57,877 nt of DNA, filler included, from Sphacelaria rigidula (GCA_964200075.2; 3 parts of 3 records of this genome joined end to end with filler, not necessarily neighbours in it), one strand, 5' to 3'; numbered from the whole stretch's first letter, positions 3,560 through 52,700 are shown. Notes: generated from the sequence alone by a model not told the origin. Made by a program: numbers and translations.

Positions 3560-6500
3560 GGGTCGCTCGAACAATAGCTTCAGAGCAAAACCTGATGACC
3601 AACAGCGACATCCGCGATAGCTTAGACCGCAGATTTACCTCCCTCCCTTATCATAGACAGTATGTGATGGCATGGTACCGAATCGCTGCCGTCTCAACGA
3701 CTGTCCGAAGCTGATTCCGCCTCACGTGAATGAAGATGATCGCTCACATGTGCATTGGCCAACTTTCAGGTTCCGCAAAAGCTTGGTGTCCAGAGAAACG
3801 GTTTTATCGATATATCCAACCAATAGTGCACTGCACTGTCGCTCTAGTACTACATGTATGCACGTCTGTACCCATTGTACTGTCTGGATGTTCAGGGGAC
3901 CCACTTTCCCCCCATCATTCCGCCACGTGCGCTGCTGATGCCAATAGCTAGACCAGCGCTACTAGCCTACTCATACTCACAAAAAGAGCCCTGACGATCA
4001 CTATGGAAGAATGTAGGTAACGGACGGCTGACGGAGATGGAGGCATTGATGACCTCCTACCGCCCCATCAACGACTTGCAAGAGTAGCTTCGCTTGCCTG
4101 TCTGTCGGTTTTATTTTCTCCTTGCATCGCTGACTTGGCAACAGACCCGCAACTGGAGGCGTATTATAATCGTGCAATGACGACTTGCTGCGGGGAGAAC
4201 CGCACTGTAGGGTGATGCCTGGATGCTCGATGATTCAACACAAGCCACACCAGCACGTTTAGAACATGCATGAACCGTAAAGTTGACTTTGATCTCCTGC
4301 ATGTGATGCACGTGTAATCTCTGTGGTGACACGAGATCTTCTGTCATGAAAAACGCTCCGGTCAAGGTATATTGTTTTACTTGCCTACAGCTCAGGTGTT
4401 CTCCTTTCATGGTCATTAGCAAACCTTGCAGGCGTGCGAGATGGCATTGCCAGCACACAATCGCTGTCATCTTTTACTGGAAGGGGCTGAGACGTGTGTA
4501 CAACAAGCTCATTCCGTGCAGAAGCTATGATCATTGCGGGCCTTGTACAGTCGCGAAGTAGTTCATTTCTAGCGGGAAGAAAGACGATGCCGTTGTTTGA
4601 TTTGCTGTACTTCTAGGAAAGTCTTGTAGCCTTACCTTTCGCTGGGATGTGGAGTACAGCACAGGTGGAATGTGCTAGTCACGAGGGGAAAACTTATACA
4701 CGAGTGGAATTGTGTTTGTCGTTGACATGCCTTGCGTGTTAACTCAGCGGTCTACCGTAAGAGTGCATGTTATCGCACCCTAGTGCGATCGCCGAATTAC
4801 ATGTTTTGCTTCTTCTATTTTTTCCGCACCCCCGTGCTAAATCAGGGCACCGTGCCAAATTGGGGACCCCCGTGCGAAAATCGAATTAAATCCCTTGCTT
4901 CTGCAGTTTGAAGAGCACCCTCGTGCGATAGCTCGGATCCGTGAGATGCTGAGTAAATGATTCGGTGCTTCCTCTTGGTTTTGCTTTTCACTCCCGTGCG
5001 ATAACACAGACCGTGCGATAGTGAAGAAGTAATTTAGCGGCTTCGAGTACCGGCACCCGCTGCTGCTGTCTTGCACTTTCCTGCCATCCCCACTCACAAC
5101 TCAACACACCCTTTTGTTCCTTGCATGGCGAGTGGTAGGTAGGTTTCCCGCCCGCTTGGGTGTCGAGTCGATGAGGAACTCGTTGCGGAGTTGTGTGATT
5201 GGTTCCTCTGATGCCGTGAACGCGTGAAAAATGCCGGTATCAGCATGGCACACGGAGGAGAACTCTTTTAGACATGCGCCTGGGACTGGTTGTATTCGTT
5301 GCGGGTTGCTTTCTCCTGGTATGTTTCTCCTCTCGTGTACTTGTAGTTGAGAGCATATGTTTCTCCTCTCGTGCTCCACTGGTGCCACTGCTGTGACAGG
5401 ATAGCATGAATGTACCGGTTATACTTTAGCCGGAGATGCAAAACAGAATTTTGTTTCGCCGGTCCTCCCGCGGCAGCAGACGAAGTCGCACCCGATATGG
5501 ATTCCATCGAAATTATCGTACCCCCATGCGATTTCAAGGACCCCCGTGCGAAAATGCAATGTGATCACTTCGAACTTTTGTTTTTGGCGCACTCCCGTGC
5601 CGAATGAAAGCACTGTGCCAAATCGGGGCACCGTACGATAGCACGCACTCTTACGGTATGCTCTGAAACTAGTGAAGGAAATAGTGGCGTCCGTCCTACT
5701 TAACCGAGAGTTGTGTAGTGAAGTTGTTGCCACCCGATCATCAGCAGGCTCGAATATTTGGGTGGGTTGTTCAAGGAAAATCAATACTTGAAGGTCTACA
5801 TGGATGGCCACCCCAACCGGACTGCCTACGTTGTTTCGCGCGATCCTTTGGCGTCAGACATATTTGAGTTATCTATGAGGCGTTGCTGTCGTGTTTAGAG
5901 TGGGAAAGCAGCGCCGCTGAGTGGGCACGGTCTTGAATCAATCCAACACTGAAGGTGCGGCTTGTACATTTGTCTCTCAGACAACGGCTGTTTTGCAAAG
6001 ACGCACAGGCAGCGTGGTTTGCGGTGCGGTCGCGCCATGAGAACGGGGCGGCGTTGCGAACCCCATTCAAGGAACATGAACCCGCATAGCCTGAGAGTGG
6101 TGACCCAGTACTTATGGCATGATTATGAATATCTGATGGGTTTCCAAGTCGGTTCATCCCACGGCTCAAACATTCACTTTCAAAACGTAGGGCTAGAAAA
6201 CACTGCTTCGATTTGAAGAGTGTCGCGAGGTCGTCCTCGAGTACGGTGTTTGGAGAAGGACTGTACGGTACAGTGCAGTACTCGATCTTGGCGGTATCAC
6301 TGCGGCACAGAGTGTGCGGTGCGGCACGGGGTGGTGTTGTAGTCACTTGGTTCAGCTCGAAGCACAGCATGTGGTTCTCCGAAACTGCAGTGCCTTATAT
6401 TACGAGGCCAAAACGATGAGTGCACCTGCAGCGACAAATGCAGTCCTCAGCAAACCGTACTTGCGAGGGTACTGCATGCATTCATGTACACCTGGTAGGT

Positions 6501-11943: not shown

Positions 11944-14900
11944 AACAGACGATCACTCGAGACGTGTGCCCGACTGAGAGATGGTCACGCGAGAGCTTGT
12001 CATGCGCGTGTCATAGATTCATTGTTTGCACACATCTGGATGTCGCATTGAGCACACTCGAAATTCACTCAAGTAAATGTACCCAGACGAAACAGAGCGT
12101 TGTGTTGTTGGCGATGGAACGGCACAGTACACAGGTTAGCACCCGCAGAAAAGCGTTGGCAAGCGTGTCAGCAAACGATCGTGTTTGATCGAAGTGTCCT
12201 TACGAATGCACGCCATTTTGTCTTTCGAAAGTATGCGTATCACCGTTACCCTCATTAAGTCCAGGCCCTGAAACACCATGTACCGGTCGTGCTGCGAGTG
12301 GGTATTTTTCGGCCTTAAAGACACAGCTGCCTCGGACCACATATGAACGAAATGGAGGATACATTGTTGTGTTTTGTCTGACCGCGGGTCCGGATTTGCG
12401 ATTTGTTCACGGGAGAGCCCGACCATTGTCCAGCGTTCGCAGGCGCACTGCTGGTCGATTGCATGCACACCTGTGCACATGACATGCTTGGCGCACACGT
12501 GAAGGGTGCTTGAGGGGTAATGGGATGGTCGTTTGACTAAGATGATGGAGATGACAAGTGCAACATGCCACAGAAATATGGAATGTAATCAGATGTCACA
12601 GTAACAGCAGATGAACGGCGGGTCTTTCCATCCGCTTGTGCGCTTTCTTCGTCAACTTGCACCATTTACAGTTGACCTCAAAGGACCACCACTACAGTAA
12701 CCCACGCGTTGGGCATGACAAGTCATGAAACATGTCCTCACCTGAGAGCGCACGTGCCGCACATATGTACAATACCTGTTCTTTTCGGAACGTTTGTGCC
12801 CAACTACCATAGCATACCCGTTTATGTAGCACTCATTTCCGCGGTATACGTAAAATACGTGTTCATTCCAGAAGGCATTTGTTTAGTGCGGGTAGAAAGG
12901 TACTCCCTCTGATCACCAATATAAGGGAGGTAAGGAAATTCGTACTATAAGCAAGGTTTATACTATATGCTCCATGTAGGCATCGTTGGACGTCGGATGA
13001 ACTCTGTATGTATAACCGGATAATGGAAGAAAACAAAAATATTTCAAACAGGCAGGGATGAATCGTTATAATCCCCTGGTTGCCTAACCCTGGCCCTAAC
13101 CCCAACACTAAGCTGCCAGCAAGGAGGTACCAAATCACTTCATCTTGCCTTGAATTGTTGAAGTTGTTGCGCTTTGGCTCTTGGACTGCACTCCCACCAA
13201 CAGGCATGCCTCATCACATGATGGGAAGGGGTGGTGATGTCGAACTACTTCTGCTGGAGTAAGATAACCCTGTTTCGGAGGGAAATATGAAAGCACCGGT
13301 TGTAGTTGTTCTGGACGAACGCGGAGAAACCGCAAAAAAGAGCAGTTCGCTAAAACATCATACTGGAGCCGAGTCAGACCGCGTGTTGTCCTTATCTTCC
13401 TGATATTCGCCATCAGAGGGAGTACATGTTTACCGTACGATGTGTGTCGGACACAGGCTGGATGACACCTCAATAGGCCAAATGGTACGTCCAACAATGG
13501 TGATATTCTGGTTGTCTAGAAGACATTTATCCCAACGTTTGGTCAGATATCAGCGCGTTTCGAATATTTTATCCTTGAACACGGGATTTTACGAGTGGGG
13601 GGGTGGTTTTTATTTGGGGGGTGGGCAACGTCGAAAGTTGGACCGAAACACGCAAAAGTTATTTCGGGGTATCCGTACGGACCGCCATGTGTTTTGTGCG
13701 GATCTTTAGTTGCACGTTGGATTGAAATCCATCCGAACATCGAACAGAATCCAATCCTATATATATATTCATGTACATGCGTAATCTCATAACCTTCAGC
13801 AGTTTTCATGGGCCTCACGACGTCCCGAGCAGATCCAACGGCGAGTTACAATTGAAGAGAGATGACTCTACAAAAAATGCACTCACCATTAAAACCATTG
13901 TTACACGGATGCAACGGACGTTTTGCATTCGTGCCATCCGGTTGGATCACAAATCCAAACGATGTCATCCTACGGACAGATTTCATTGACTACCTCGACG
14001 TGGTCTCAGGCTTCCCATATCTTCCTGTCAATATCCACCATGGAGGTTGCTTCCGCGGCCCGGCACTGGCTCGCGTCGCCGCCCCCGCCGCCGCCGCTGA
14101 ACGCCCTCCGAAACCTCGGGCGACTATCCGACAAATACAATAACAATATTCCCAAAGAATCGCTTTTGCACTTCCCGGTCCAAGTTTTGACCTTGTTCAT
14201 CCCCTCACAAAATCTATCCCCCACTTGTAAACGTTGTCGGGCGTCTACCGGTTTCCACTAGGGCTGTAAAGGGAAGCATTCTTACGGCGAAGATTACCGT
14301 CATGTCGGCGTCATCTAGAATGTTTTCACCAATCGTGTACAGTCGTGATATACTCATCCAACAGATGTGCAGTGCGCTGTACTGAAAGCCTTGTTTCATC
14401 TCCCAACGGTTTCGCTGCCCGCCCAGCTTCCGGCGTTTTCCTGATGACAAGCATGTATTACCATGCACACCATGTAGACGCGATACGAGCCGGAAATTAT
14501 GACGTGAAGGTGACTAAAGCAAGCATCAGATAACCCGACATATGAACTCAAATGTGGTTGAAGTGTGGGAAATTAGAACAATACATTACTGTTTGTTTCC
14601 ACGGTACCCGATATGACTGAGAAGATGAAGATATTCAAGCATAGGAGCACATGTGCGCGTGTAATGAGATTCGGCAGATACGCATATTTTTTGCGCGTAT
14701 GCACATACCAAGTTCTGTATCGAAATTGATATAACTTGCTTTCGACGGTCGCTTGTACCGCTGTTGAGAACGAAAGACACCCCTCTTCTATTTATATCTT
14801 GTAGCCGTGGAATAGAACAGGATCGAACCAGGCCAGTAGCTCGGAAGGTGGTCAGGCATCTTCGAGTTCAGGATGATTTCCCCTTACTTGTAGGTATCTA

Positions 14901-15273
14901 TATATGATCTCCTCCAAGGGCGTCAGGTATTCTGCCGGTGTAGAGCAACTTCCCAAAATGTTGGTAGGTGTCCCACAAGCCTTGAGTTGTGTAATACTGC
15001 ATGTATCATGTCCGGTGAATCCCGACTTGGTATTATGCATACAAGGTCGTCTGCTTTCATTCACCTCTTGTATCATTTCAATGCTATATTTACTTCAGAT
15101 CCATACTGCCGTGTTGGTTAGGAAACCCCATGCGCTTGAATTACCTTGGGCACTAGAGTTGTAGTCGTGGCGATCAGTTTATGTAAAGCATCATTCCAGT
15201 AAGTGCAGGTAGTTCCTCTTCTTTCCGTTGATGTGCGACGATAGTGTTTTTTTCAACTCGCTTTCTGCTGCAG

Positions 15274-18219
15274 ATGACGGGAGAATCCTCCGGTGTTTTG
15301 CCAATTGTGCTGCCGCGAAATGTTTCTTCTCTTCAGAAACACCACGCGACAGAGCTGATGGCCCGCGTGTCAAAAAGAGAGTGCATCAACGAGGGCTGCT
15401 CGAAGCGGTTGAGATATGGTGTACCGGGTAGCAAGAAGGCCGAGTCCTGCTCTCAGCATGTCAGGGCGGGGATGGTTGATGGGGTGGGGAAGAAATGCGG
15501 CGACAAGGGCTGCTCCAAGAAACTGTCGTTTGGTGTAGCGGGAAGTGAGAAGGCGGAATTCTGCATCGAGCATGCCAGGGCGGGAATAGTGGATGTGGTG
15601 AACAGCACGTGCGGCGACGAGGGCTGCTCAAAAAAGCCGTCGTTTGATGTGGCGGGAATCAAGAAGGCCGAGTTCTGCTCGAAGCATGCAAGGGCGGGGA
15701 TGGTGGATGTGGTGACTAAGAAATGCGGCAACGAGCGCTGCTCCAAGAAGCCATCGTTTGGTGTGGCGGGAACGAAGAAGGCCGAGTTCTGCATCAAGCA
15801 TGCCAGGGCGGGAATGGTGGATGTGGCGAGGAGGAGGTGCGGCGACGAGCGCTGCTCGAAGAAGCCGTCGTATGGTGTAGCGGGAAGCAAGATGGCGGAG
15901 TTCTGCATCAAGCATGCCAGGGCAGGAATGGTGGATGTGGTGAGCAGGAGGTGCGGCGACGAGGGGTGCTCCAGAAGGCCGTCGTATGGTGTAGCGGGAA
16001 GCAAGAAGGCGGAGTTCTGCAGCAAGCATGCCGAGGCGGGAATGATGGATGTGATAAACAGCACGTGCGGCGATGAGGACTGCTGCAAAAGGCCGTCGTA
16101 TGGTGTAGGGGGAAGCAAGAAGGCGGAGTTCTGCTCTCAGCATGCCAGGGCGGGGATGGTGAATGTGGTGACGAAAACATGCGGCGACGAGCGCTGCTCC
16201 CGAAGGCCATCGTATGGTGTAGCGGGAAGCAAGAAGGCGGAGTTTTGCGCCCGGCATGCCAGGGCGGGGATGGTGGACGTGGTTACTAAGAAATGCGGCG
16301 ACAAAGGTTGCTCCAAGAAGCCGTCGTTTGGTGTGGCGGGAACCAAGAAGGCCGAGTTCTGCTCTCAGCATGCCAGGGCGGGAATGGTTCATGTGGTGAC
16401 GAAGAAAGGCGGCGACGAGCACTGCTCGAAGAAGCCGTCGTACGGTGTAGCGGGAGGCAAGAAGGCGGAGTTCTGGATCAAGCATGCCAGGGCGGGGATG
16501 GTGGATGTGGTGACGAAGAAATGCGGCGACGAGGGCTGCTCCAAGAAGCGGTCGTTTGGTGTGGCGGGAAGCAAGAAGGCCGAGTTCTGCATCAAGCATG
16601 CCAGGGCGGGAATGGTGCATGTGGTGAGGAGGAGGTGCGGCGACGAGGGGTGCTCCATAAGGCCGTCGTATGGTGTAGCGGGAAGCAAGAAGGCCGAGTT
16701 CTGCGTCGAGCATGCCAGGGCAGGAATGGTGGATGTGGTGAACAGCAGGTGCGGCGACAAGGGCTGCTGCAAAAGGCCGTCGTATGGTGTAGCGGGAAGC
16801 AAGAAGGCGGAGTTCTGCTCTCAGCATGCCAGGGCAGGAATGGTGGATGTGATGAACAGCACGTGCGGCGACGAGAACTGCTGCAAAAGGCCGTCGTATG
16901 GTGTAGCGAGAAGCAAGAAGGCGGAGTTTTGCGCCCGGCATGCCAGGGCCGGGATGGTGAATGTGGTGACGAAAACATGCGGCGACGGGCACTGCTCCAG
17001 AAGGCCATCGTATGGTGTAGCGGGAAGCAAGAAGGCGGAATTCTGCTCGAAGCATGCCAGGGCGGCGATGGTGGATGTGGTGACTAAGAAATGCGGCGAC
17101 AAAGGTTGCTCCAAGAAGCCGTCGTTTGGTTTGGCGGGAACGAAGAAGGCCGAGTTCTGCTCGAAGCATGCCAGGGCGGGAATGGTTCATGTGGTGACGA
17201 AGAAAGGCGGCGACGAGGGCTGCTCCAGAGGGCCGATGTATGGTGTGGCGGAAAGCAAGAAGGCGGGGTTCTGCGCCGAGCATGCCAGGGCGGGAATGGT
17301 GGATGTGGTGACAAGGGAGTGCGGCGATGAGGGCTGCTCGAAGAAGCCGCCGTATGGTGTAGCGGGAAGCAAGGGGGCGAAGTTCTGCGTCCAGCATGCC
17401 AGGGAGGGAGCGGTGGATGTGGTGAGGAGGACGTGCGGCGATGAGGGCTGCTCCAGAACGCCGTCGTCTCGTGTAGCGGGAAGCAAGGAAGCGGAGTTCT
17501 GCTCGAAGCATGCCAGGGCGGGGAGGGCTCATGTGATGAGCTACAAGTCTAGCAAAGAGGGACCCTTGAAATTGGATATTCTCCATAACGACGACCTTGA
17601 TGAGGCAAAAATATGCCGACAGTATCCCACTGCGCATGAAGTAGCTACACTGTACGACATGGAATACCTGAGCTCTGGAGAGCCCACCTCCATCCGCACC
17701 ACAAGCGACGGTGGTGAAGGAAACAGCAGCACAACCGACGGTGGTGAAAGCGTTGCCGGCGTCCGAGGAACAAAACGCAAGCGCGCACCATGCCTGAGTT
17801 CTGGTACAAGCGACGTTGTTGATGCTCGACGTAGTGTGTACCCTGTTGCCAGGCGTAGTGGGGTAACACCACTCTTACTTCCGGGCCAGCTACCCTCAGA
17901 GGCGGATCGTGAGATATCTTCCGTGTCAAGGGTGGAAGCAGGAATGAAGGTGGAGATGGCAGCTCCTTCTCCTACACACGGTGGCGCTGGCGCTGGAATG
18001 GGAGAGTGTAGCAAATATACTGACCCTTTTAAGGGTTGGAGCAGTGCAGGTGGTCACAGTAGCTCCCGCAGCAACAGTTGTGGTGTAAGTCCGGGACGGT
18101 TATATGATTCGCCGGTGGTTGTATTCGGGTCTGTTGGCGCATTTGTCGGTTTGGAATCGGTAGAGACGTTGGAGGGTTCAAGCGTAAAGTTGGAGCTAGG
18201 AGCGGCGTCCGATAGATGA
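15274..18219 (+). CDS. EsV-1-7-type cysteine-repeat (C-x4-C-x16-C-x2-H) domain protein, ~981 aa
   Basis: Long uninterrupted ORF (track 15244..18219; first ATG at 15274, directly after a pyrimidine tract and CAG). It has 19 repeats with consensus CGDEGCSKKPSYGVAGSKKAEFCSKHARAGMVDVVTKK, typical of brown-algal EsV-1-7 proteins. The low-complexity C-terminus contains KRKR. Confidence 0.9.
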   Translation: MTGESSGVLPIVLPRNVSSLQKHHATELMARVSKRECINEGCSKRLRYGVPGSKKAESCSQHVRAGMVDGVGKKCGDKGCSKKLSFGVAGSEKAEFCIEHARAGIVDVVNSTCGDEGCSKKPSFDVAGIKKAEFCSKHARAGMVDVVTKKCGNERCSKKPSFGVAGTKKAEFCIKHARAGMVDVARRRCGDERCSKKPSYGVAGSKMAEFCIKHARAGMVDVVSRRCGDEGCSRRPSYGVAGSKKAEFCSKHAEAGMMDVINSTCGDEDCCKRPSYGVGGSKKAEFCSQHARAGMVNVVTKTCGDERCSRRPSYGVAGSKKAEFCARHARAGMVDVVTKKCGDKGCSKKPSFGVAGTKKAEFCSQHARAGMVHVVTKKGGDEHCSKKPSYGVAGGKKAEFWIKHARAGMVDVVTKKCGDEGCSKKRSFGVAGSKKAEFCIKHARAGMVHVVRRRCGDEGCSIRPSYGVAGSKKAEFCVEHARAGMVDVVNSRCGDKGCCKRPSYGVAGSKKAEFCSQHARAGMVDVMNSTCGDENCCKRPSYGVARSKKAEFCARHARAGMVNVVTKTCGDGHCSRRPSYGVAGSKKAEFCSKHARAAMVDVVTKKCGDKGCSKKPSFGLAGTKKAEFCSKHARAGMVHVVTKKGGDEGCSRGPMYGVAESKKAGFCAEHARAGMVDVVTRECGDEGCSKKPPYGVAGSKGAKFCVQHAREGAVDVVRRTCGDEGCSRTPSSRVAGSKEAEFCSKHARAGRAHVMSYKSSKEGPLKLDILHNDDLDEAKICRQYPTAHEVATLYDMEYLSSGEPTSIRTTSDGGEGNSSTTDGGESVAGVRGTKRKRAPCLSSGTSDVVDARRSVYPVARRSGVTPLLLPGQLPSEADREISSVSRVEAGMKVEMAAPSPTHGGAGAGMGECSKYTDPFKGWSSAGGHSSSRSNSCGVSPGRLYDSPVVVFGSVGAFVGLESVETLEGSSVKLELGAASDR
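15382..17547 (+). repeat. Coding tandem array, 19 x 114 bp
   Basis: Units recur at exact 114-bp spacing (e.g. 15382, 15952, 16408, 16750, 17206) with no indels. Confidence 0.95.
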
Positions 18220-19227: not shown

Positions 19228-19327
19228 NNNNNNNNNNNNNNNNNNNNNNNNNNNNNNNNNNNNNNNNNNNNTTAATTAATTAANNNNNNNNNNNNNNNNN
19301 NNNNNNNNNNNNNNNNNNNNNNNNNNN
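19228..19327. other. Artificial assembly linker (N-run, TTAATTAATTAA, N-run; 100 bp)
   Basis: N runs flank TTAATTAATTAA, which gives stops in all six frames. An identical linker occurs at 38554-38653. Confidence 0.97.
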
Positions 19328-31783: not shown

Positions 31784-32058
31784 CAGGGTCGGACGAATCA
31801 TAGCTGGTTTCAATGTTCCAATCACCAAATCTATGATTTCTGAGACCTCAGTGCTCGGGAGAGAGAAACAGCGTCGACCGTGGGTCAAAAACGTCTCTAC
31901 CCGAATTTGTGCCACTCTGCGTGCCTGGTGTGCGCGTACCTGGGGTGCAATGCTGAGAACAAAGCCCAAGGATTGATTCGTGTGTTACCAAGTATCGACA
32001 CTAGAAAAATTATTTTTCAGACGAGCTGTCAGACGAATTGTGATTCGTCCGCGCCATG
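31784..32058 (+). mobile_element. MITE family B, copy 1
   Basis: TIRs CAGGGTCGGACGAATCA / TGATTCGTCCG; the body (CTGAGAACAAAGCC..GGATTGATTCGT) is shared with 35518-35775. Confidence 0.6.
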
Positions 32059-32309
32059 AATCATTTGATTTCATTTTGTATCCACGTGCTGCACTATTGT
32101 AGATGGGTGATGTAAGGCTCATGTGCGTGGGATGTAAGACACCAACGCCCACAGGTCGTGGATGGCACTGGGCTGCAGTGGTGGGGCTGCGCTGTTTCGT
32201 TATTTGACCGTTCCCTTTATTATAGAGCCAGCGCGCGGAAGGCCAGCGATCAAGTTGCAGCCGTTCAGATTGTGTGCTGAACCCTCGGTGCTACTGACTT
32301 GTTATTCGT

Positions 32310-32395
32310 GCTTGTGTTTGTTTTTGTCGTTGTTTTTGTCGTTGTTTTTGTTGTTATTGCTGTTGTTTGTTGTTGTTGTTTGCTGCTGCTGCTGC

Positions 32396-32441
<46 letters not shown>

Positions 32442-32460
32442 GTTGTTTTTTGTTGTTATC
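32310..32460. repeat. Compound (GTT)/(GCT)/(GGT) microsatellite
   Basis: Direct reading. Confidence 0.9.
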
Positions 32461-33359
32461 GCTGCCCCCTTTCTTTCCTTCCTGAGGCCGTTGCTTCTGT
32501 CGTTTTCAGTCCCTTTCTTTATTTTTTATTTTTTATTATTCTGTTTTATTTTTGCTGCTCCTGACCACGGGCTGGATTGTTGCAATCAGCTAATAATGTG
32601 AGATAATCAATCAACCAATCAATTGTTCTACCTTCACATATTGCGTTGCCAGTGCTGAATGTCTTTTCATATTTGTACGCCTGTATGATAGCTTGGAGCA
32701 CTCACAAGGGGCGACGGGTGTAGACATTTACTGATTAGGAATCGATGGGGTTGTTGCTGTCGTGTTCGAAGTTAGTAGTAGTTACACAAATATACGGTAA
32801 TACGGCTAGTAATGTGATCACCATTTCCATTGACCCGACCCGCATGTTAATGACCCGGGCTTGTCATCCATGACCTGTCAACCCCCGGCTGTTATCCTCC
32901 ATTCCCCAGTCCGCTATGCCGTCAAAGTCACAACAAATAAATAACGCCCAGTGCACGTTTGAGCTACGTATTATTACTATCACGTAGTTAACGAATAATG
33001 TGATATCCTTTTGAAATGCTTTATGTTTTGAGTGGATTATTAGTAAGCTTACGCTGCTTGTCAGGTTTTCCCCCAGAGGCTAGAATCCCTGACCGTTTAG
33101 CTTCATTGGAGGAGCAGGGTGACACCGCTGTTGTAGCTGGGGGGTGCTGTGATTACCCGGGGGATGTAAACCCGAATCCGGTCAACCCCGGGACTGTCAT
33201 CCTCCATTTTCCATTTTGGGCTGTGGCCGTGCTCTTCACTCTGGTCGTCGACACCCAAAAACTCGCCGCCCGTCACCTCATCTACGTATACGGGGTGAAA
33301 TGCTACAACCTACACTGTCCTGAGTTAGATAGACCGTACTCGTAGTTCACCAATCCTGT

Positions 33360-33475
33360 TCATAGTAGTAGGAACGGTCGTAGTAGTAGTAGTATCAGCA
33401 GCAGCAGCAGCAGTAGCAGCATCACTAGCAGTCGTAGCAGTAGCAGCAGTGGTCGTGGTAGTAATGGAAAGTAGT
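33360..33475. repeat. Compound (AGT)/(AGC) microsatellite
   Basis: Direct reading. Confidence 0.8.
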
Positions 33476-35517
33476 GATAGAAAACACATTTGTGCCCTCG
33501 GCTTACTTTCTCCATTTATTTTTATTTGCTCGCTGTTCCTCCCTATTGCACCTCGTGATGGCGTCTATTTTTGTGTTCATTCTCCTTCTGATCAACGTAC
33601 CAGGGCGGGATTGGGTGTTTCATCGGTGTTTCAGGTCTACGGCATCAGAAAACGTGAGTGCAACCTGGTGCAACGTCTATTTTCTGACCACGGCTCGATT
33701 TCTATTACATAGGATCAGGTGGTGTGTGACAACAAGCCAGTCAAATTCATCAGTCAATCGGATCCTTGGCAGCTGTTATTGTGCCCACCTTCGCGAATGC
33801 GATGATTGAGAGCTAATCGATCACATCGCCTATACAGGTGGTGCTGGTAAAGTACTGACGCGTGTTCCTCGCAGGACAAAGTATGTACCACGTGGAGGGC
33901 CATCCAGCGGCACTTACTCCGCGCTGGAATTGTGAATACCGAAGAAAATTACCTCCCCTTCCCCTGCCTCCCGCCGGTTCCTGGTCTGGCGAAAACCCGG
34001 CGTGCTCCGTCCTGACTTTGTAGGGACGGACCCCCCATGAGGTTGGCGTCAGTTGGCAACGACACTGTAAAACACGCCACTCACTGCGTAAGCTAGCCGG
34101 TTTTTTTTCGCGGTCACCATGATGATGGTCGAGCTAGATCATATCGTGCGGGGTGAGAGAATCTCAATTCTGCGCAAAGGGAGTCGTTATACTTCGTGGT
34201 ATTTATATGGTGAGACGTTCATGAGGCAGTGTGTAAGCCGGGGCTGTCTCTGGAATTGGCAATACCAGAAAATGAAGCGAACCCATTGGAGGCTGTCATC
34301 CATATGCAAGATAATCAGTAGGCTTCGGGCCGAACAATCTTGGCAGGATGCAGCTCACCCTTCATGCGACCAACCGAACACATCCCGGTGCTTCTCGCCT
34401 GGAGGTTGATTGCGAGCCTAGCCCGGCGAACACCCAGCGTTCTCCGTCCCGGCTTTGTAGGGATGCGAGGTCAATGATCATATGACTATGGCATGCAAGA
34501 TCATGAGTACACCCCCCCGGAGGAGTAGGAACGGTGCTCCGTCTCGAAAGGGATGCGTGACCAATGGCCAAACGACTAAGGCAAGCAACACATGAGTACG
34601 CCTCCCCTCCCCCACCCGGAGGGAACAATTCGAGTTTTGGACACTCCAGAGTTGAAAATTCGAAGTACTGCACGAGAAGCTGGCCCAGCCTACGAACGAC
34701 CTAGGTGTGACCCTGGATCTCCCACCTCAGATTTGTGACTTATCGTGCTTTGAAATTTGCCAAGATAAAGAAATGGTTACTCTACATATGAGTGTTTTTC
34801 CCACAAGATGAGTTGAGGGCAAAAGCGAACATCGACTTTCCCCAAAACTTCCACAAGCAGCGGGTTCTCAAAATTGAGGATAGAGCTTACCATGGGGATG
34901 AGCAAGGTTCGGAATGGTGCGCGGAAACAGCATTCATATTTTTTTCGATAATATTTCGGTAGTTGTGGAGGGTACTGGTGCGGTTTTGAAGCGACCCCGA
35001 CCAAGCAAGGTGCAAGGATAAATAGGAGGGAAGTCAGTAACGGTCTGGAATGCTATCGTATAATCAAATACTAAACAATATTGATTCAGAGCTCCGTACA
35101 ATACAAAAAAACGTGCGTACTGCTCATACATCTGCGTATAGAAGGCCATACCCTACCCGATCTGCCCTTTGTTGACGCTTTTGTACTGACACGGGATGCT
35201 GAAAAATGGGAACAACATTTTCTGTGAAAATCGACTGAGGTCAAAATTGCGTCACAGTATTGCAACTAGTACGCGGTCCAACGTACCATTATACATATAG
35301 AAACTGGCACCACGTCAAACGTACCTTTGAATGTCCGAAGGGGCAAATATGCATATTTTTGCATCGAATAACCTTGTTCCCCCTTTTCAGGGGGAAACAT
35401 GATACGAACCCGGGCGCACCTTTGAAAGTCATGTGTACCTTGGGATAATGGCAAGAACACGTGCGCATGGCCAGTTCCGCATGACCAGTCCGACTATGAT
35501 CACCTGAATCACACTTT

Positions 35518-38553: not shown

Positions 38554-38653
38554 NNNNNNNNNNNNNNNNNNNNNNNNNNNNNNNNNNNNNNNNNNNNTTA
38601 ATTAATTAANNNNNNNNNNNNNNNNNNNNNNNNNNNNNNNNNNNNNNNNNNNN
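38554..38653. other. Artificial assembly linker (N-run, TTAATTAATTAA, N-run; 100 bp)
   Basis: Same 100-bp structure as 19228-19327. Confidence 0.97.
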
Positions 38654-46700: not shown

Positions 46701-49700
46701 TACCCGACGAAAATGGCCCAGCAAAAGAGTTCGTGCACTCATCATGGCTTAAAACTGACCAAGGGTTTTCTTGTTCCATACAAATGCTCAATATCCATGT
46801 GTTCATGCAAATAGGCGGGCTGTGATCCTCGAAAAACAGTACTTCAATATCAAAATCAAGTTCGCTACGGGCGATTGTGGGCGATCTGGGCGGGGGCGGG
46901 GGGGGGGTGTCGCTGTCCAGGGGTTAAATAAGATCACTCAGTCTCCACTTGACCTCTCGAGAATCAGGTGCCTCGGACCAGCGGTTCTCACACTTCGGAA
47001 CCCACGTCGGAACGCTTGCTCGCGCCCTTTCCTTCTTCCCGCCGGAATCTACTCAGCTGCTAGCTATAGGGTGGATGGACGGACAGGTTTCAGCGTGGAG
47101 TGTGATGGAGACTCTGCAGGATAACGCATCCTCGTGCACGTGCTCTAACCAGGGCGTGCACAAGCAACCCATCACTGTTATGCTATGGAACCCATCGGGC
47201 ACACGACTCATCACGGGCGACAAGGTATAGGATCGCATTTTAACCGGTGGCAATAGTTTTCGTCACCTGGTGAAGCTTTCGAAAACATAGGGCTCTCTGC
47301 GAGGAATGCAGTAGTCGCTTGTGTCTGTAGGATGTCAACGCGGCACGATGTGTGCAATTTGACGGCCACTGTCGTGTGCGATCATATCTACTAGCTGCCT
47401 AAGCATGAAACTTTATGACATTTGCTTTGGAATGCCTGAGAAACGCAAGCTGCTGTCAGCGGGTTACCGTCAGGCATTACAATGACAGAATGACCAGGTA
47501 GCCTACAAGTTCTATCCGGGGTCACAGCGATTTGATTTGCTCGCCTGGTATCTGTCACTGGACATACTAGCATATTGAACAAAAAAGACAAACATTACCA
47601 TATCAGTAGATGACACACACATAAAGACGCGTTGGTTTCACGCAGACCCAAGGTCGCCACGGGAGCATACCCGGAGCGCCTCGCTCGCGGCGCGAGGGAA
47701 GTCTCGATGTCCCTACATATTAGAAAGAGCTGCTTCGCTGAAAACTTATTCTGTATGATCTCTCTCCGCTCTTGATTTCCCCAGGGAGGTGTGGTTTGCG
47801 TGTGGAAGGCCGATGCGAGAGGAAACATGGCGCCCTCGGTTCAATACCGGCGAAAGACAAGTGCTGTGACGGCGGCTGTCTTTTGCGGTGGACCCTCGCA
47901 CTCAGCGGATGCTTTGGCACAGGTAGGTTGGTACGTTGGTATATTGGCGTAACAGAATCTCACCCTCCTCTTCTGAGTGTCCTGTCACATTGCCGAGCGC
48001 ATCCACTTGAAGTTTCCCCTAACATCGTCGTTTGGATGATCCGTTGAGATGCTCGCGAGCTAGAACCAATTCCTGTGCTAGTCCACTTTGTACGCGTTTG
48101 GGTCCAAATCATTATACAATGACGTGACCGCGGTGTGAACATGCCACGGGTGTGCCGTGGCTATTGGAGGTGGATGTGGAGGCTAGTACCCCCACCGTTT
48201 CCCCATTGCAGACGTTACTGGTTACTACGGAGATGAGATGTCTCCCCATCATCCATGCTACAAAACAATAAAAAGAGACAACCCACTTGTCATGGTGCGG
48301 CAGTGACGACTCAGGTACGGTATAATCAGCCCTGCGTCCTCTAATGTATCCAAAACACGGTCACGACACGATGTCACACCGTCGTGTGGTATGTTAATTT
48401 GCAATCGGTTAAACAACGACAAGTATATTTTGGTGATCTAACCTTCTGCACGCGGCTGCTTGCAAAATTCTCAACCTGGGCATTGGCGCGGTACCGACCA
48501 TAGGCATTTTCTCCTTCCTTTTTCTTTGGGACGGAAGCCGGGGCCGTGTCCTACGCCGATGACTTAGGTCATTGTTCAGAGGTCCAGCAACTCACATCCG
48601 CCGTCGATAGGCTCGTGTTCTACGAGGCAGTGCGTCGCCTAGTCATCATCACGCGATCCCTGCTCATGACTCAGCTCCAGGTAAGCGAGCGCGACTAACG
48701 TATCGCGGGTGCCCCTTGCTATGGTCGCCTCGCCGGTATCCGATTGCCCTCAAGCGTTTCCCCTTCATCTGATGATGGCGACATCTTTCTTATCAAAGGT
48801 CTAATAATTTCCTGGTTCCATGAGATGATTCAGGTGCGCAAATCCCCGGCGCATTTTCTGGACTCTGTTATTTCCTGCGTGCGTACCCCCGCTTGCTGCT
48901 GACGGTATAGGCGCGCTTAGTATGCCCAGCATCGTCATGTATTTCATCTGTGTGAGGCCTCATAGCATGGTGATCCTCATACATACGAAACGGACGAGCC
49001 GCATTTGTCCCCATGTCTTTGTAGTTTGTCTTCTCGACTGGGTAGGAATGCGTGTGCTGCTGCGGGAGACCTTGTCCACCTGAAGCCATGCTACAGAGGT
49101 TGACCATTTCTGCCTTTCTCGTCATTGTTTTTTATTAGTCTACTCTTTGTATCTGTTTTACCTTTTTGTTTTCTTCAATGTCCTGCAGCGAGTGTTTGAG
49201 TTAATTTCTCGGGTTTGTCTCTCATGTTGATAATGACCAGAGCTAGATCCCTGGAGGATCTGTTGATATGCGACGACCAGTCAATCAAACCACAACCAAC
49301 GAGGCAACGTATTCCCTGCAGCATTTTTCAGAGCTACCCGTAGCGTTTTCTCTCTCCGACACCCACGTAGGCATCAACGATCCTGCTCGTTTTTGCTTTG
49401 TTCCGTCGTCAAAGCAGGTTGGGGAGGACGGGCGTGTCTCTCAGTTCATGAAAGTCAAGCTGTCGGTGTCTGCCTCGTCCGTTCGCGAATCTGGATTACG
49501 TGAGGTAAGAATAGCGGTGGTGGTATGACACAAAATACACAACCTCGGGGCGCGGGAATGAGCTAATGTGCACCGGCGACAACTGATCAAGGCTAGCCCA
49601 CAGCAAACTCTGGGCCCCAGTCAACACAAGCATGAACGGTGCAGTGCATCGTACCCTCGTTACAGTTCATTGCGGGTAGTTGGAAATATGTGCACCCCAC

Positions 49701-52700
49701 CCTCACATCCCGGCATACGTCAGCACTCGATAAAATCGAAGCAAATAGCATAAAACACAACGCAACCCTTCCTTCTCAGGTGACTTGGGCGGGTCCGGGC
49801 CTCTTGGCCGCGGCTACCGGTGAGGGGTTAGTTCGCTTCTGGGATCTCTCCTCGGATAAAAACTACGTCCTCACGCTCCAGTCTGGGGGGTTAGATCGGG
49901 TTGACAAATCTTCCTGCATCAGTTTCGATCCTATGCGAAGGTGAAATGAGGACAGCATAAGACGTTTGTGAAGTCATGTTGGGAGCGGGTGCAGCACTGT
50001 GAGTTTTTGTTTGGAGCGTGTAGGGGCTGTTGCGCCGGCGTTACAACGATCGCAGAGCTGTAATCGTGCCACTGCGCACAGTAGAAACCGAACGTGTGCG
50101 ACGTCCGTAGGCGTCTTCTGTTGCAGTATCTTCTAACTGCGAAACGCGTGTTTCTCCGGCGGTGGGCACGATCATTTGAGATTTCGGGTTAGTCGATACC
50201 GTTGTCAAAAAGAAGGGGGTGTCCGTACACGCTGTGCGTTTGCGTGTCAAAAGTTTTAAGATGCATTGCATTTCGATAGTACACTACACTCAGGTCGCGT
50301 GCAGTATGTATCCGAGATTAAATGTCTCGTGGGTCACATAAGAGCTGCCAGAACCTTCTTACCGCGAAAGGAGGTGCCCCTCTCTCTGGCTCACTTTTGG
50401 GCGAAGAATTATCAGCGACACACATGGACAGATATATAGAGAGACAAACAGCCGGGAACAGCCATCCAGAGAATAGAACTAACACCACGTTTGCCGCGCA
50501 GGTACCTCGCTGTGGGCTCAACGTTTGGTTGTGTGGCGATCTGGAAGTATGTCGGGGCGTACGACACGGGAAGCGATGCACCGGACGTGAAGGTCAACTC
50601 TACGTCACCTACTTCGCCCAAGTCAAGCACGGTTGCGTCAGATACAGCAGGAGGCGTGTTAGTGTGTTTGGCATGACATGGGCAAGGTCAACCCACTAGA
50701 CTTCGGAAGTTGAAGTACCATGCGCTTTGATCTGCCGTAGCACCGTGTCGATTGTACCGTATTGACTGGAGCAATCCTCCGTCAGACGCTGTCTATCCTT
50801 CTCATACCCAAACGAATTCATGCATCACCGTCAAGAACATAAAACCGCCGCGCGATCATTCAGTTGATATGCTTTCAAAATCCATCTGTCAGGGAAATTC
50901 AAACACGACAGAAAGTAGTTGAAATGTCTAGTAGATCCCAACATGTCACGTCAACCTCCATCACATTTTCTCCTCTCTGATTTAATATTTGTTCAGGGCA
51001 AAGGGCGAACGCTGCCACTCGCAAAACGTCCAACATCTCCCGGAGATTCAGGTGGTCCTAACGACTGGAAGGCACTAGCGCCGACCACGCTGGACAGTGT
51101 ACCCATCGGAATGCTACGTTGGGGTGCGGCAGGCGGTGTGCTTGGGGTTTTCAGTCGGGGCATGGCAGACGGAGCGCACGTGCTCGCAGAAACTGTGTTG
51201 CATCGGCACATCAGGTGCTACGAGGAGGAGTAGTGGCATTGCAGGAACATTGTTTCGACATAGAATGTGCTTTTCTGACGTATGCTCCAGGTTACGAAAG
51301 ACAACTATTCGTTGGGCTAGTGAGGCCTACCGCAGGGTTTGCTGTGCTCATACTGATGAGCGTCTCCGGTAGATTGGTGATCACCGCCTGCGTTCAATCA
51401 GCACTGAACCTTACAGCTTGGACGTATTGACGTGTATCGTGGCGCGGAATTCTCCACGCACACCCTGCACAAACCGTGAAAACTTGTGGACTACGGAGGC
51501 GAACAGCCCCATCGCGATGGTGGTGTCGCCGGTTGATGGCGATATTCGTTCGCCGACGGGATGCAGGTTAACATTATGTGGATTGTTGGGGGGACACGGC
51601 TCAACCAACAGTCCAACCGATAGCCGCCTCGACAAGTTTTTCTCGGGATTAATATTGTTCGCGAAAACGTTGTACGTGCAGCGGTAATGTGGCGGTGATC
51701 CAGCTGACGAGCGACACGCTTAGAATCGAGTATCAGCGGAAAGTTGGGAGCAGTGGCCTTGACGCGGAGTTAACTGGAGGAGGTGGCAACGGGGTGGATT
51801 CTTCGCTCGAGGGAGAGCAAGTGGTACGGTGCGACATCAGCATCAAGGGGTTTCACTTGCAGGTAGATCAATCTACGAGGTGTGGGGATCCAACACGATT
51901 CTGAGGGGCTGTTCTTCCCACGCTGTTGAAAAAGCACGTTCTGATGACGTCTCATCCGCAGTTGACGTCCTTACATGCCTCAGTGGAGACAGCTTACCTA
52001 TACATGAGAGGGGTTCAAAAGCAGCTGTAAGTTCTGCCAATATTTCCTTCTTCTACTCTCGTATTCGATAATGTTTCACCAGAAAACGGCATGCGCCTCG
52101 AGGCACCAGAGCACGACAATGCCCTCGTGTTTCCGTGGATAAAACTTCCACTTTAACGTTCGAGGTTCGCATCAATGCCAACAATGACGCTTCCTTTGTA
52201 ACGAACCATGATTCTAGGTACAGTAATCAGTAACCGGAGTAGCCTGAGGTAGGGGGGTGATGAGAGGGTAGCGATCGATCTCTTTTGGTAATCTTCGAAC
52301 CTCGCCGATCGTCGTAACCCCGAGTCGATAGTCCTGAGCGACGTGTCGGGACGCGCGTGCTCTACTCTAACCTGCTGCTGCAAACGCGCGGTTTCAATTA
52401 TTTGGCGCGGGTCGAAGAGGTTGTCCACTTGTGAGCCGACAGCGGAGGTTTGCACGGAGGACTTTTTCCCTCTCGCAAACACTTATCGAGTTGGGTGGTA
52501 TCCAAATGGCATGAAGTATCTATTGTTTTCGCGTGGTCTGGCGTGCCAACTGATATTATGCACCCAAGTGCATCAGAATCCCTCCCCCCCCCTCATCAAC
52601 ATCCTCTCCTCCCCCCCGCCCACATGCGACGCATTGCTTCTGTTTTGGGCTGTGCTTCAACTGGTTTTGACTGCTATCGTGCACGCCCTTTTTCGGTGTC

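Follow-up and report, generated by a model that had tools for sequence, protein, structure and literature searches.

The EsV-1-7 family is hugely expanded in brown algae, with 2,018 curated members that often form tandem gene arrays, and it has been described as the largest orthogroup in a 2026 atlas (10.1101/2024.02.19.579948; 10.64898/2026.04.27.720984), with up to 335 copies per genome, in Ascophyllum (10.1101/2024.02.19.579948). The family's expansion, its viral affinity and the developmental role of its member IMMEDIATE UPRIGHT (IMM) have all been described (10.64898/2026.04.27.720984; 10.1101/2024.02.19.579948; PMC7457493; PMC12993054; PMC12477816). Its motif has been proposed, and only proposed, as a possible new zinc-finger class (10.1101/2024.02.19.579948; PMC12477816); the Ectocarpus genes have no other Pfam domain (10.64898/2026.04.27.720984), and a 2025 paper reports the acquisition of an EsV-1-7 domain at the N-terminus of a Tc1/mariner transposase from Ectocarpus (PMC12477816). 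Here we analyse an EsV-1-7 gene with nineteen tandem units in a 57,877-nt (58-kb) stretch of DNA from Sphacelaria rigidula (GCA_964200075.2), the whole of which we call the window. An original prediction made from this DNA had seen in the array a candidate modular recognition protein resembling transcription activator-like effectors (TALEs), possibly with a repeat-to-base code. It had also held that neither ligand nor code is established for the family, and we likewise found no report of a ligand, structure or code in the literature searched, of which subscription papers and supplements may hold more. We find that the gene is a new, unusually long, homogeneous and recently expanded member of a known large family and no new kind of system; a TALE-like code is unsupported by the sequence pattern, most of which is explained by a young, block-duplicated array.

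The frame that encodes the array spans 2,976 nt, while elsewhere in the window no frame outside the array exceeds 214 codons. The gene is laid out as follows (all on the + strand).

15244..18219, +, open reading frame (ORF) of the EsV-1-7 array, uninterrupted, 991 codons plus stop; the frame opens at 15232
15274..15372, +, N-terminal leader, 33 amino acids (aa) from the first ATG, without family match
15373..17538, +, EsV-1-7 array, 19 tandem 114-nt (38-aa) units of the form x3-C-x4-C-x16-C-x2-H-x9
15715..17310, +, higher-order repeat, a 7-unit (798-nt) block duplication of units 4-10 (15715-16512) and 11-17 (16513-17310)
16399..16512, +, unit 10, degenerate, with Cys1>Gly (GGC) and Cys3>Trp (TGG)
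17197..17310, +, unit 17, degenerate, with Cys1>Gly, where the paralog P0058 retains Cys in the unit at the corresponding position
17539..18216, +, C-terminal tail, 226 aa, Ser/Gly-rich, mildly acidic (isoelectric point (pI) 5.45), no Pfam family
17773..17784, +, KRKR motif, aa 844-847, within RGTKRKRAP of the tail

Membership of the EsV-1-7 family, which the original prediction had named, is borne out by a Pfam scan: PF19114 (EsV_1_7_cys) matches 19 stretches and scores 845.4 bits (E 6.6e-262), where the cut-off is 25. The ligand spacing C-x4-C-x16-C-x2-H recurs in 213 units of relatives, whose modal spacing of 37-39 aa brackets the array's period of exactly 38, and the search for relatives returned 5,887 representative proteins at E<=1e-3 (873 at E<=1e-30). 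Among the matches listed, most named relatives come from brown algae (Sphacelaria, Ectocarpus, Scytosiphon, Ascophyllum, Laminaria, Pylaiella), the others listed being single matches from Nannochloropsis and the green alga Elliptochloris. Closest are P0058 (420 aa, 74% identity), P0062 (72%) and P0060, named in the source as 'unnamed protein product [Sphacelaria rigidula]'. The tail is 75% identical to that of P0058 and is common also to P0062 and, more distantly, P0060, with RGTKRKR kept in all three, which places the gene in a small subfamily characterised by this tail. With the family at large (PF19114/IPR043822) the window protein shares the motif, the ~38-aa tandem spacing and the predicted fold, and with its Ectocarpus members the absence of any other Pfam domain. 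Unlike other members, it has an unusually homogeneous array with a 7-unit superrepeat and a conserved tail common only to a few Sphacelaria proteins, and its strict motif count of 17 is the highest among the 194 proteins compared (next 16 and 15). Nor does it fit the description of IMM, with which it was compared by description only: IMM has a unique N-terminal domain and five EsV-1-7 repeats (10.1101/2024.02.19.579948), whereas here 19 units follow a leader of at most 43 aa. Among the relatives, precomputed Pfam lists pair PF19114 with reverse transcriptase (PF00078), retrotransposon gag (PF14223) or electron-transfer flavoprotein domains in P0054, P0040 and P0029, combinations that could be genuine fusions or the product of merging separate gene models.

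The repeat itself was well described by the original prediction. There are indeed 19 indel-free 38-aa units, consecutive, exactly 114 nt each and within one ORF; the interval first given, 15382-17547, starts its count at Cys1 and denotes the array that our register puts at 15373-17538. Tandem Repeats Finder scores it at 2474, with a period of 114, 18.5 copies and 82% matches. The description as a Cys3His array stands for the 17 of 19 units that keep all four ligands and fails for units 10 and 17, which are degenerate. Variation is concentrated, as had been noticed, at unit positions 1-3, 7-8, 10-12 and 27-28, which together account for 14.9 of the 29.8 bits of entropy summed over the columns, or about half, with secondary variable positions at 15, 20, 36 and 38. 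The two co-variations singled out are also literally true: every CKR unit (7, 13 and 14) carries NSx, and both TKT units (8 and 15) carry SRR. NSx does not imply CKR, however, as unit 3 combines NST with SKK, and the full signatures of variable residues differ in 19 of 19 units, with no small reused alphabet visible.

How these patterns arose can be read from the history of the array. Mean nucleotide identity between units peaks at lag 7 (85.7%, against 79-84% at other lags), and the pairs 9/16 (96%), 4/11 (92%), 7/14 (92%), 5/12 (91%) and 8/15 (89%) are closely alike, which makes units 4-10 and 11-17 the two copies of a duplicated block. In a maximum-likelihood tree of all 19 units, 9/16 (support 99/97), 8/15 (85/87) and 7/13/14 (82/74) form groups, and removal of the variable codons, leaving 84 columns, still pairs 8/15 and 9/16. 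The co-varying triplets thus belong to three and two units that group as duplicates. Because the triplets sit 7 codons apart, any duplication or conversion tract moves both together; each co-variation amounts to about one independent event and is therefore uninformative on function.

The near-invariant scaffold on which the idea of modular recognition leaned is present in the array, but its invariance reaches synonymous sites and many of its fixed positions vary in relatives. Every intact Cys is encoded by TGC (54 of 54) and every His by CAT (19 of 19), and 10 of the 38 codon positions show zero synonymous diversity. In the family comparison, which took in 213 units from relatives, including 18 arrays of at least 6 units, only C4, C9, C26, H29, G8, P13, F/Y15, G16, G19, F/Y25, G33, M34 and V35 are conserved; positions 5, 6, 10, 17, 18, 21-24 and 30-32, fixed in the array, vary freely in the 18 related arrays. 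Homogeneity at synonymous sites together with this variability in relatives suggests that the constancy of the scaffold largely reflects recent common ancestry or concerted evolution of a young array, and not structural necessity. The array would have grown and been homogenised by unit duplication, one 7-unit block duplication and probably gene conversion, a history that would account for both the near-identical scaffold and the linked triplets.

Selection on the variable sites was assessed by Nei-Gojobori counts of non-synonymous and synonymous change (dN, dS) over all unit pairs. Codons 1-3, 7-8, 11-12 and 27-28 give dN 0.47 and dS 1.06 (dN/dS 0.44), and the scaffold codons dN 0.09 and dS 0.27 (dN/dS 0.34); between lag-7 pairs the ratios are 0.70 and 0.36, the scaffold ranging over 0.30-0.36 in all pairs and lag-7 pairs. 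In five phylogenetically independent sister pairs of units, the proportions of non-synonymous and synonymous differences (pN, pS) were compared using each class's own pS and the pooled pS, giving a pN/pS for the whole variable set of 0.71 (own) and 0.88 (pooled). Codons 8, 27 and 28, which lie beside Cys2 (8) and between Cys3 and His (27, 28), stand apart, with pN 0.34 and pN/pS 1.06 (own) or 2.4 (pooled; Fisher p 0.011), an exploratory result for sites picked post hoc. Without them the variable set falls to 0.37 (own) and 0.25 (pooled), close to the remaining codons (0.33 and 0.31). Neither unit-pair nor sister-pair counts reveal a site class with dN/dS clearly above 1.

The variable sites thus appear two-tiered: positions 1-3 and 10-12 seem to mark old unit lineages and are kept between recent duplicates, while codons 8, 27 and 28 appear to change at about the synonymous rate or faster, by drift or diversification. 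Against the five units of P0058, variable positions differ at 27 of 50 sites and other positions at 28 of 140 (Fisher p 1.8e-5); the units of P0058 do not pair one-to-one with those of the array. Among the ten most variable positions in each of 10 arrays, position 27 appears in three, 28 in three and 8 in four, and positions 27-28 are nearly constant in the closest paralogs (SQ/SK in P0058, SK/SE in P0060); judged from these alignments, the fast positions are not a family property. Variability across repeats and paralogs and dN/dS among the repeats, both proposed as checks on the code, do not favour it: no class lies clearly above 1 and the most variable positions differ among the 10 arrays.

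Of the predicted structures, a 2-unit model reached a predicted local distance difference test (pLDDT) score of 85.8 and a predicted TM-score (pTM) of 0.54, and a 6-unit model a mean pLDDT of 68 and a pTM of 0.28; in both, each unit has a pair of 3-residue strands (positions 15-17 and 34-36) and helices of 4 residues or more are absent, the 2-unit model having no helix at all and the 6-unit model a single 3-residue helical turn. As modelled, the units are small strand-only modules without confident inter-unit packing. Positions 7-8 would lie near 27-28, on the sole ground that the four ligands have to meet. The 2-unit model matches the predicted EsV-1-7 model (Q8QNQ2) at E 9.7e-8 and TMq 0.85, with a root-mean-square deviation of 1.4 over 74 columns and 49% identity, a match that compares two predictions and is not independent of sequence similarity. 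Predicted viral structures yielded 22 matches at E<=1e-3 among 68 listed, EsV-1-7 and EsV-1-115 included. The PDB gave no match by sequence at E<=1, and by Foldseek none at E<=1e-3 for either the 6-unit model (45 rows at E<=10) or the 2-unit model (10 rows at E<=10), while VIA-align over 48,161 chains returned two with Z>=2, both at 2.1; these misses in fold searches do not show a new fold.

Arrays of the same kind occur in giant viruses. Four of the 22 significant viral structure matches are named 'Endonuclease' and one 'DNA primase' in the database. A degenerate DNA pattern picked out nine loci in viral contigs, seven of them true arrays, with 4 EsV-1-7 units in L001, 7 in L004 and 10-11 in L002 and L005-L008; L003 and L009 were rejected as chance pattern matches, and an alignment-based pattern search of viral contigs gave five pattern matches, none of them confirmed. 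Six loci encode proteins in which 7-11 units are joined to a common C-terminal domain of ~170 aa with the invariant RPD...E.DEHQH...R.NPD, for example:

L002:1639-3435, -, giant-virus array plus C-terminal domain protein, 599 aa (likewise 599 aa in L005-L008)
L004:2414-3787, +, giant-virus array plus C-terminal domain protein, 458 aa

This domain has no significant match in Pfam, PHROGs, NCBIfam or PDB sequences and profiles; the Atlas assigns it to 'hypothetical protein' clusters of giant viruses, including one with the automatic name 'Endonuclease (Fragment)' (score 0.90). We do not claim it as a nuclease, and a likeness to PD-(D/E)xK nucleases is putative; the giant-virus proteins may represent a natural array-plus-nuclease architecture. 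The window protein resembles these Nucleocytoviricota proteins in its tandem EsV-1-7 units (structural match TMq 0.75-0.94) and differs in ending in a low-complexity tail where they carry the ~170-aa domain; the viral units are also far more diverged from each other.

Taking these observations together, we consider it probable that the gene encodes a young, concertedly evolving 19-unit member of a known family whose basic modules would bind a polyanion, with no one-base-per-repeat code. Each module would wrap round a single zinc as a small knot built of strands only, and the array as a whole would resemble a flexible string of basic beads. The array has a net charge of +68 (pI 9.5), and the KRKR of the tail resembles a nuclear-localisation signal; given these features, and the fusion of related arrays to a transposase and to endonuclease- and primase-named viral proteins, DNA is the most likely ligand, and nucleic-acid binding by the array is plausible on such sequence features. 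The protein would enter the nucleus, bind a polyanion multivalently, most likely DNA or chromatin, and act as a regulator, as proposed for IMM.

Several points weigh against this reading. Its functional half is drawn from the charge of the array, a single motif and the fusions seen in other proteins, and the viral names 'Endonuclease' and 'DNA primase' are database names that could not be confirmed. Two of 19 units are without full ligands, a loss that may reflect constraint relaxed across the gene as a whole, and dN/dS among units is 0.46 overall, only mild constraint. On its historical side, the scaffold-only columns leave the 7/13/14 group unresolved, though not contradicted, so that the duplicate origin of these units rests on the full-length tree and on their place in the lag-7 block.

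Another possibility is that tandem expansion of the family has thrown off this gene as an incidental recent copy, which experiences little or no selection and is heading for decay. Lost ligands in two units, the overall dN/dS of 0.46, the lack of one-to-one correspondence with the units of the closest relative and the hundreds of family copies per genome (up to 335 in Ascophyllum; 10.1101/2024.02.19.579948) would all suit such a copy. A decaying gene, however, would hardly be expected to keep a stop-free 2,976-nt frame where no other outside the array exceeds 214 codons, a scaffold dN/dS of 0.30-0.36, 17 of 19 units intact and a unique tail 75% identical to that of its paralog with KRKR preserved, and we regard decay as quite unlikely. 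Unlikely too, if less so, is a scaffold for protein-protein or protein-chromatin contacts, its modules recruiting partners in the manner of LIM, B-box, PHD or RING domains. The only likenesses to solved structures, very weak ones, are to tandem PHD, B-box, LIM, RING and the nsp13 zinc-binding domain (Foldseek E>1; best Z 2.1), all below any useful threshold. The lack of other Pfam domains in Ectocarpus EsV-1-7 genes (10.64898/2026.04.27.720984) is compatible with such a role, as is the conserved, probably disordered tail, which could be a docking region; the charge of +68 and the fusions to DNA-acting enzymes point instead to a polyanion.

The least probable of the readings we weighed is the programmable nucleic-acid reader, in which each unit contacts a base or short step and specificity comes from positions 1-3, 7-8, 10-12 and 27-28. 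Variation is certainly site-restricted, and by chain geometry the variable residues, which flank the presumed ligands, would lie close together round the metal site; yet the signatures are different in all 19 units, with no reused alphabet visible, and the co-variations are confined to three and two duplicated units. Codons 8, 27 and 28 have a pN ~2.4 times the pooled pS in sister pairs, and homogeneous nucleotides with hot-spot codons are also the signature of TALE and PRDM9-type arrays, but these codons were picked after seeing the data, are not hot in common across arrays and are nearly constant at 27-28 in the closest paralogs, while the rest of the variable set is scaffold-like (0.37) and the set as a whole gives only 0.44 (all pairs), 0.70 (block pairs) and 0.71 (sister pairs). 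The strongly basic array and the fusions of related arrays to a transposase and to endonuclease- and primase-named virus proteins would suit a reader of nucleic acid; the 6-unit model (pTM 0.28, no helices), by contrast, gives no sign of a rigid superhelix, and units 10 and 17 are without full ligands. The case for a TALE-like code accordingly fails on several counts at once: a scaffold invariance that is synonymous-deep, co-variation from duplicates, a variable-set dN/dS of 0.44-0.71, hot positions that differ among arrays, a helix-less model and two units with lost ligands. This evidence takes away the argument for a code from the sequence pattern, while EsV-1-7 arrays may still bind DNA in a sequence-specific way.

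Two classes of modular reader serve for comparison. TALE repeats are metal-free helical hairpins of 33-35 aa that pack into a superhelix, with two variable residues, the same one or two hypervariable positions recurring in every repeat and member. The array resembles them, by analogy only, in its near-identical tandem units of similar length (38 aa) and its site-restricted variation, and departs from them in its Cys/His ligands, strand-only modules, ~10 variable positions and lack of confident inter-unit packing; no TAL-effector match is among the four Pfam families listed for the window protein. C2H2 fingers have the ligand pattern C-x2-4-C-x12-H-x3-5-H and a beta-beta-alpha fold, and their KRAB-ZNF and PRDM9 arrays change through duplication of units and concerted evolution, only a few codons being fast. 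Again as an analogy only, the present array shares with tandem C2H2 arrays its presumed zinc modules, unit duplication, concerted evolution and few fast codons in a homogeneous repeat. It differs in its C-x4-C-x16-C-x2-H ligands, the absence of a predicted helix or a zf-C2H2 Pfam match, and fast codons that are inconsistent across paralogs.

It is very unlikely, in our estimate, that EsV-1-7 arrays join C2H2 fingers and TALEs as a third natural class of modular reader with sequence specificity for DNA, each zinc module contacting a short DNA step and specificity coming from the linker and post-Cys2 triplets (positions 1-3 and 10-12), tuned by 8, 27 and 28. Were it so, giant viruses would aim a nuclease-like domain, and a Tc1/mariner element its transposase, by means of such arrays, brown algae would build large, fast-evolving sets of regulators, and the 19-unit gene would be among the longest and most 'designable' natural examples. 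Whatever their ligand, EsV-1-7 genes are among the most amplified gene families of brown algae, a developmental regulator included. The 19-unit gene offers a convenient natural test object, with near-identical modules, few differing sites and a block duplication providing internal controls. The giant-virus arrays with their conserved domain and the transposase capture may be more useful still, and give a concrete reason to try DNA first as ligand.

The surroundings of the gene are those of a host chromosome. A Pfam scan of 142 other ORFs of at least 90 aa in the window matched only two, both to the first beta-propeller of IFT140, and found no virus or transposon domains among them.

46928-47227, +, IFT140 first beta-propeller frame (Pfam E 4.1e-7)
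49636-49941, +, IFT140 first beta-propeller frame (Pfam E 4.5e-12)

Both seem to be exons of an ordinary flagellar gene for intraflagellar transport, which would be rich in introns and lie downstream of the EsV-1-7 gene. Since only these exons, and no virus or transposon domains, lie around it, the gene is placed in host chromosomal DNA; that it is a chromosomal, intron-less gene of the brown alga is part of the explanation we hold probable as a whole. An origin as an integrated phaeovirus or giant-virus gene was rejected, the 58 kb showing neither dense intron-less viral ORFs nor viral marker domains.

Some details of the frame and its setting may be added. In-frame ATGs stand first at 15274 (Met11) and second at 15358 (Met39), and a pyrimidine-rich tract with a terminal CAG (15250-15273), resembling a splice acceptor, abuts the first of them. 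Contigs of run X1 (15156-15407) are colinear with the genome across this tract and the leader, with zero joints; an exon may lie upstream of the tract, which these contigs neither show nor exclude. The array has a GC content of 0.59 against ~0.48 in its flanks, and opposite it lies an antisense open frame of 669 codons (15628-17637, -), with further long frames in other phases; these are all taken as by-products of the GC-rich, stop-poor repeat, the antisense frame being rejected as a second gene. Apart from the array's own alternative frames, the window has two other ORFs of at least 200 aa, both unannotated. A search of the ESM Atlas with the C-terminal tail gave no usable match. Four runs of exactly 44 N occur at 19228-19271, 19284-19327, 38554-38597 and 38610-38653, forming two pairs with 12 bases between members, and represent masked or withheld sequence; the strongest strand asymmetries outside the array are AT skews of -0.22 over 32001-34000 and -0.11 at 4001-6000 and 48001-50000.

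Contig matching was confined to the non-repetitive 5' part (13500-15720), where the small runs X1 and X3 match exactly and without joints at 15156-15720 and 15334-15720 and larger runs span the whole interval; this coverage shows neither transcription nor silence. Within the array (15525-15720; runs X1, X3, X4 and X7) the summed contig depth rises from tens to thousands. Many of the contigs there run on into unlike sequence encoding other EsV-1-7-type units, so the source organism's data hold many paralogous arrays.

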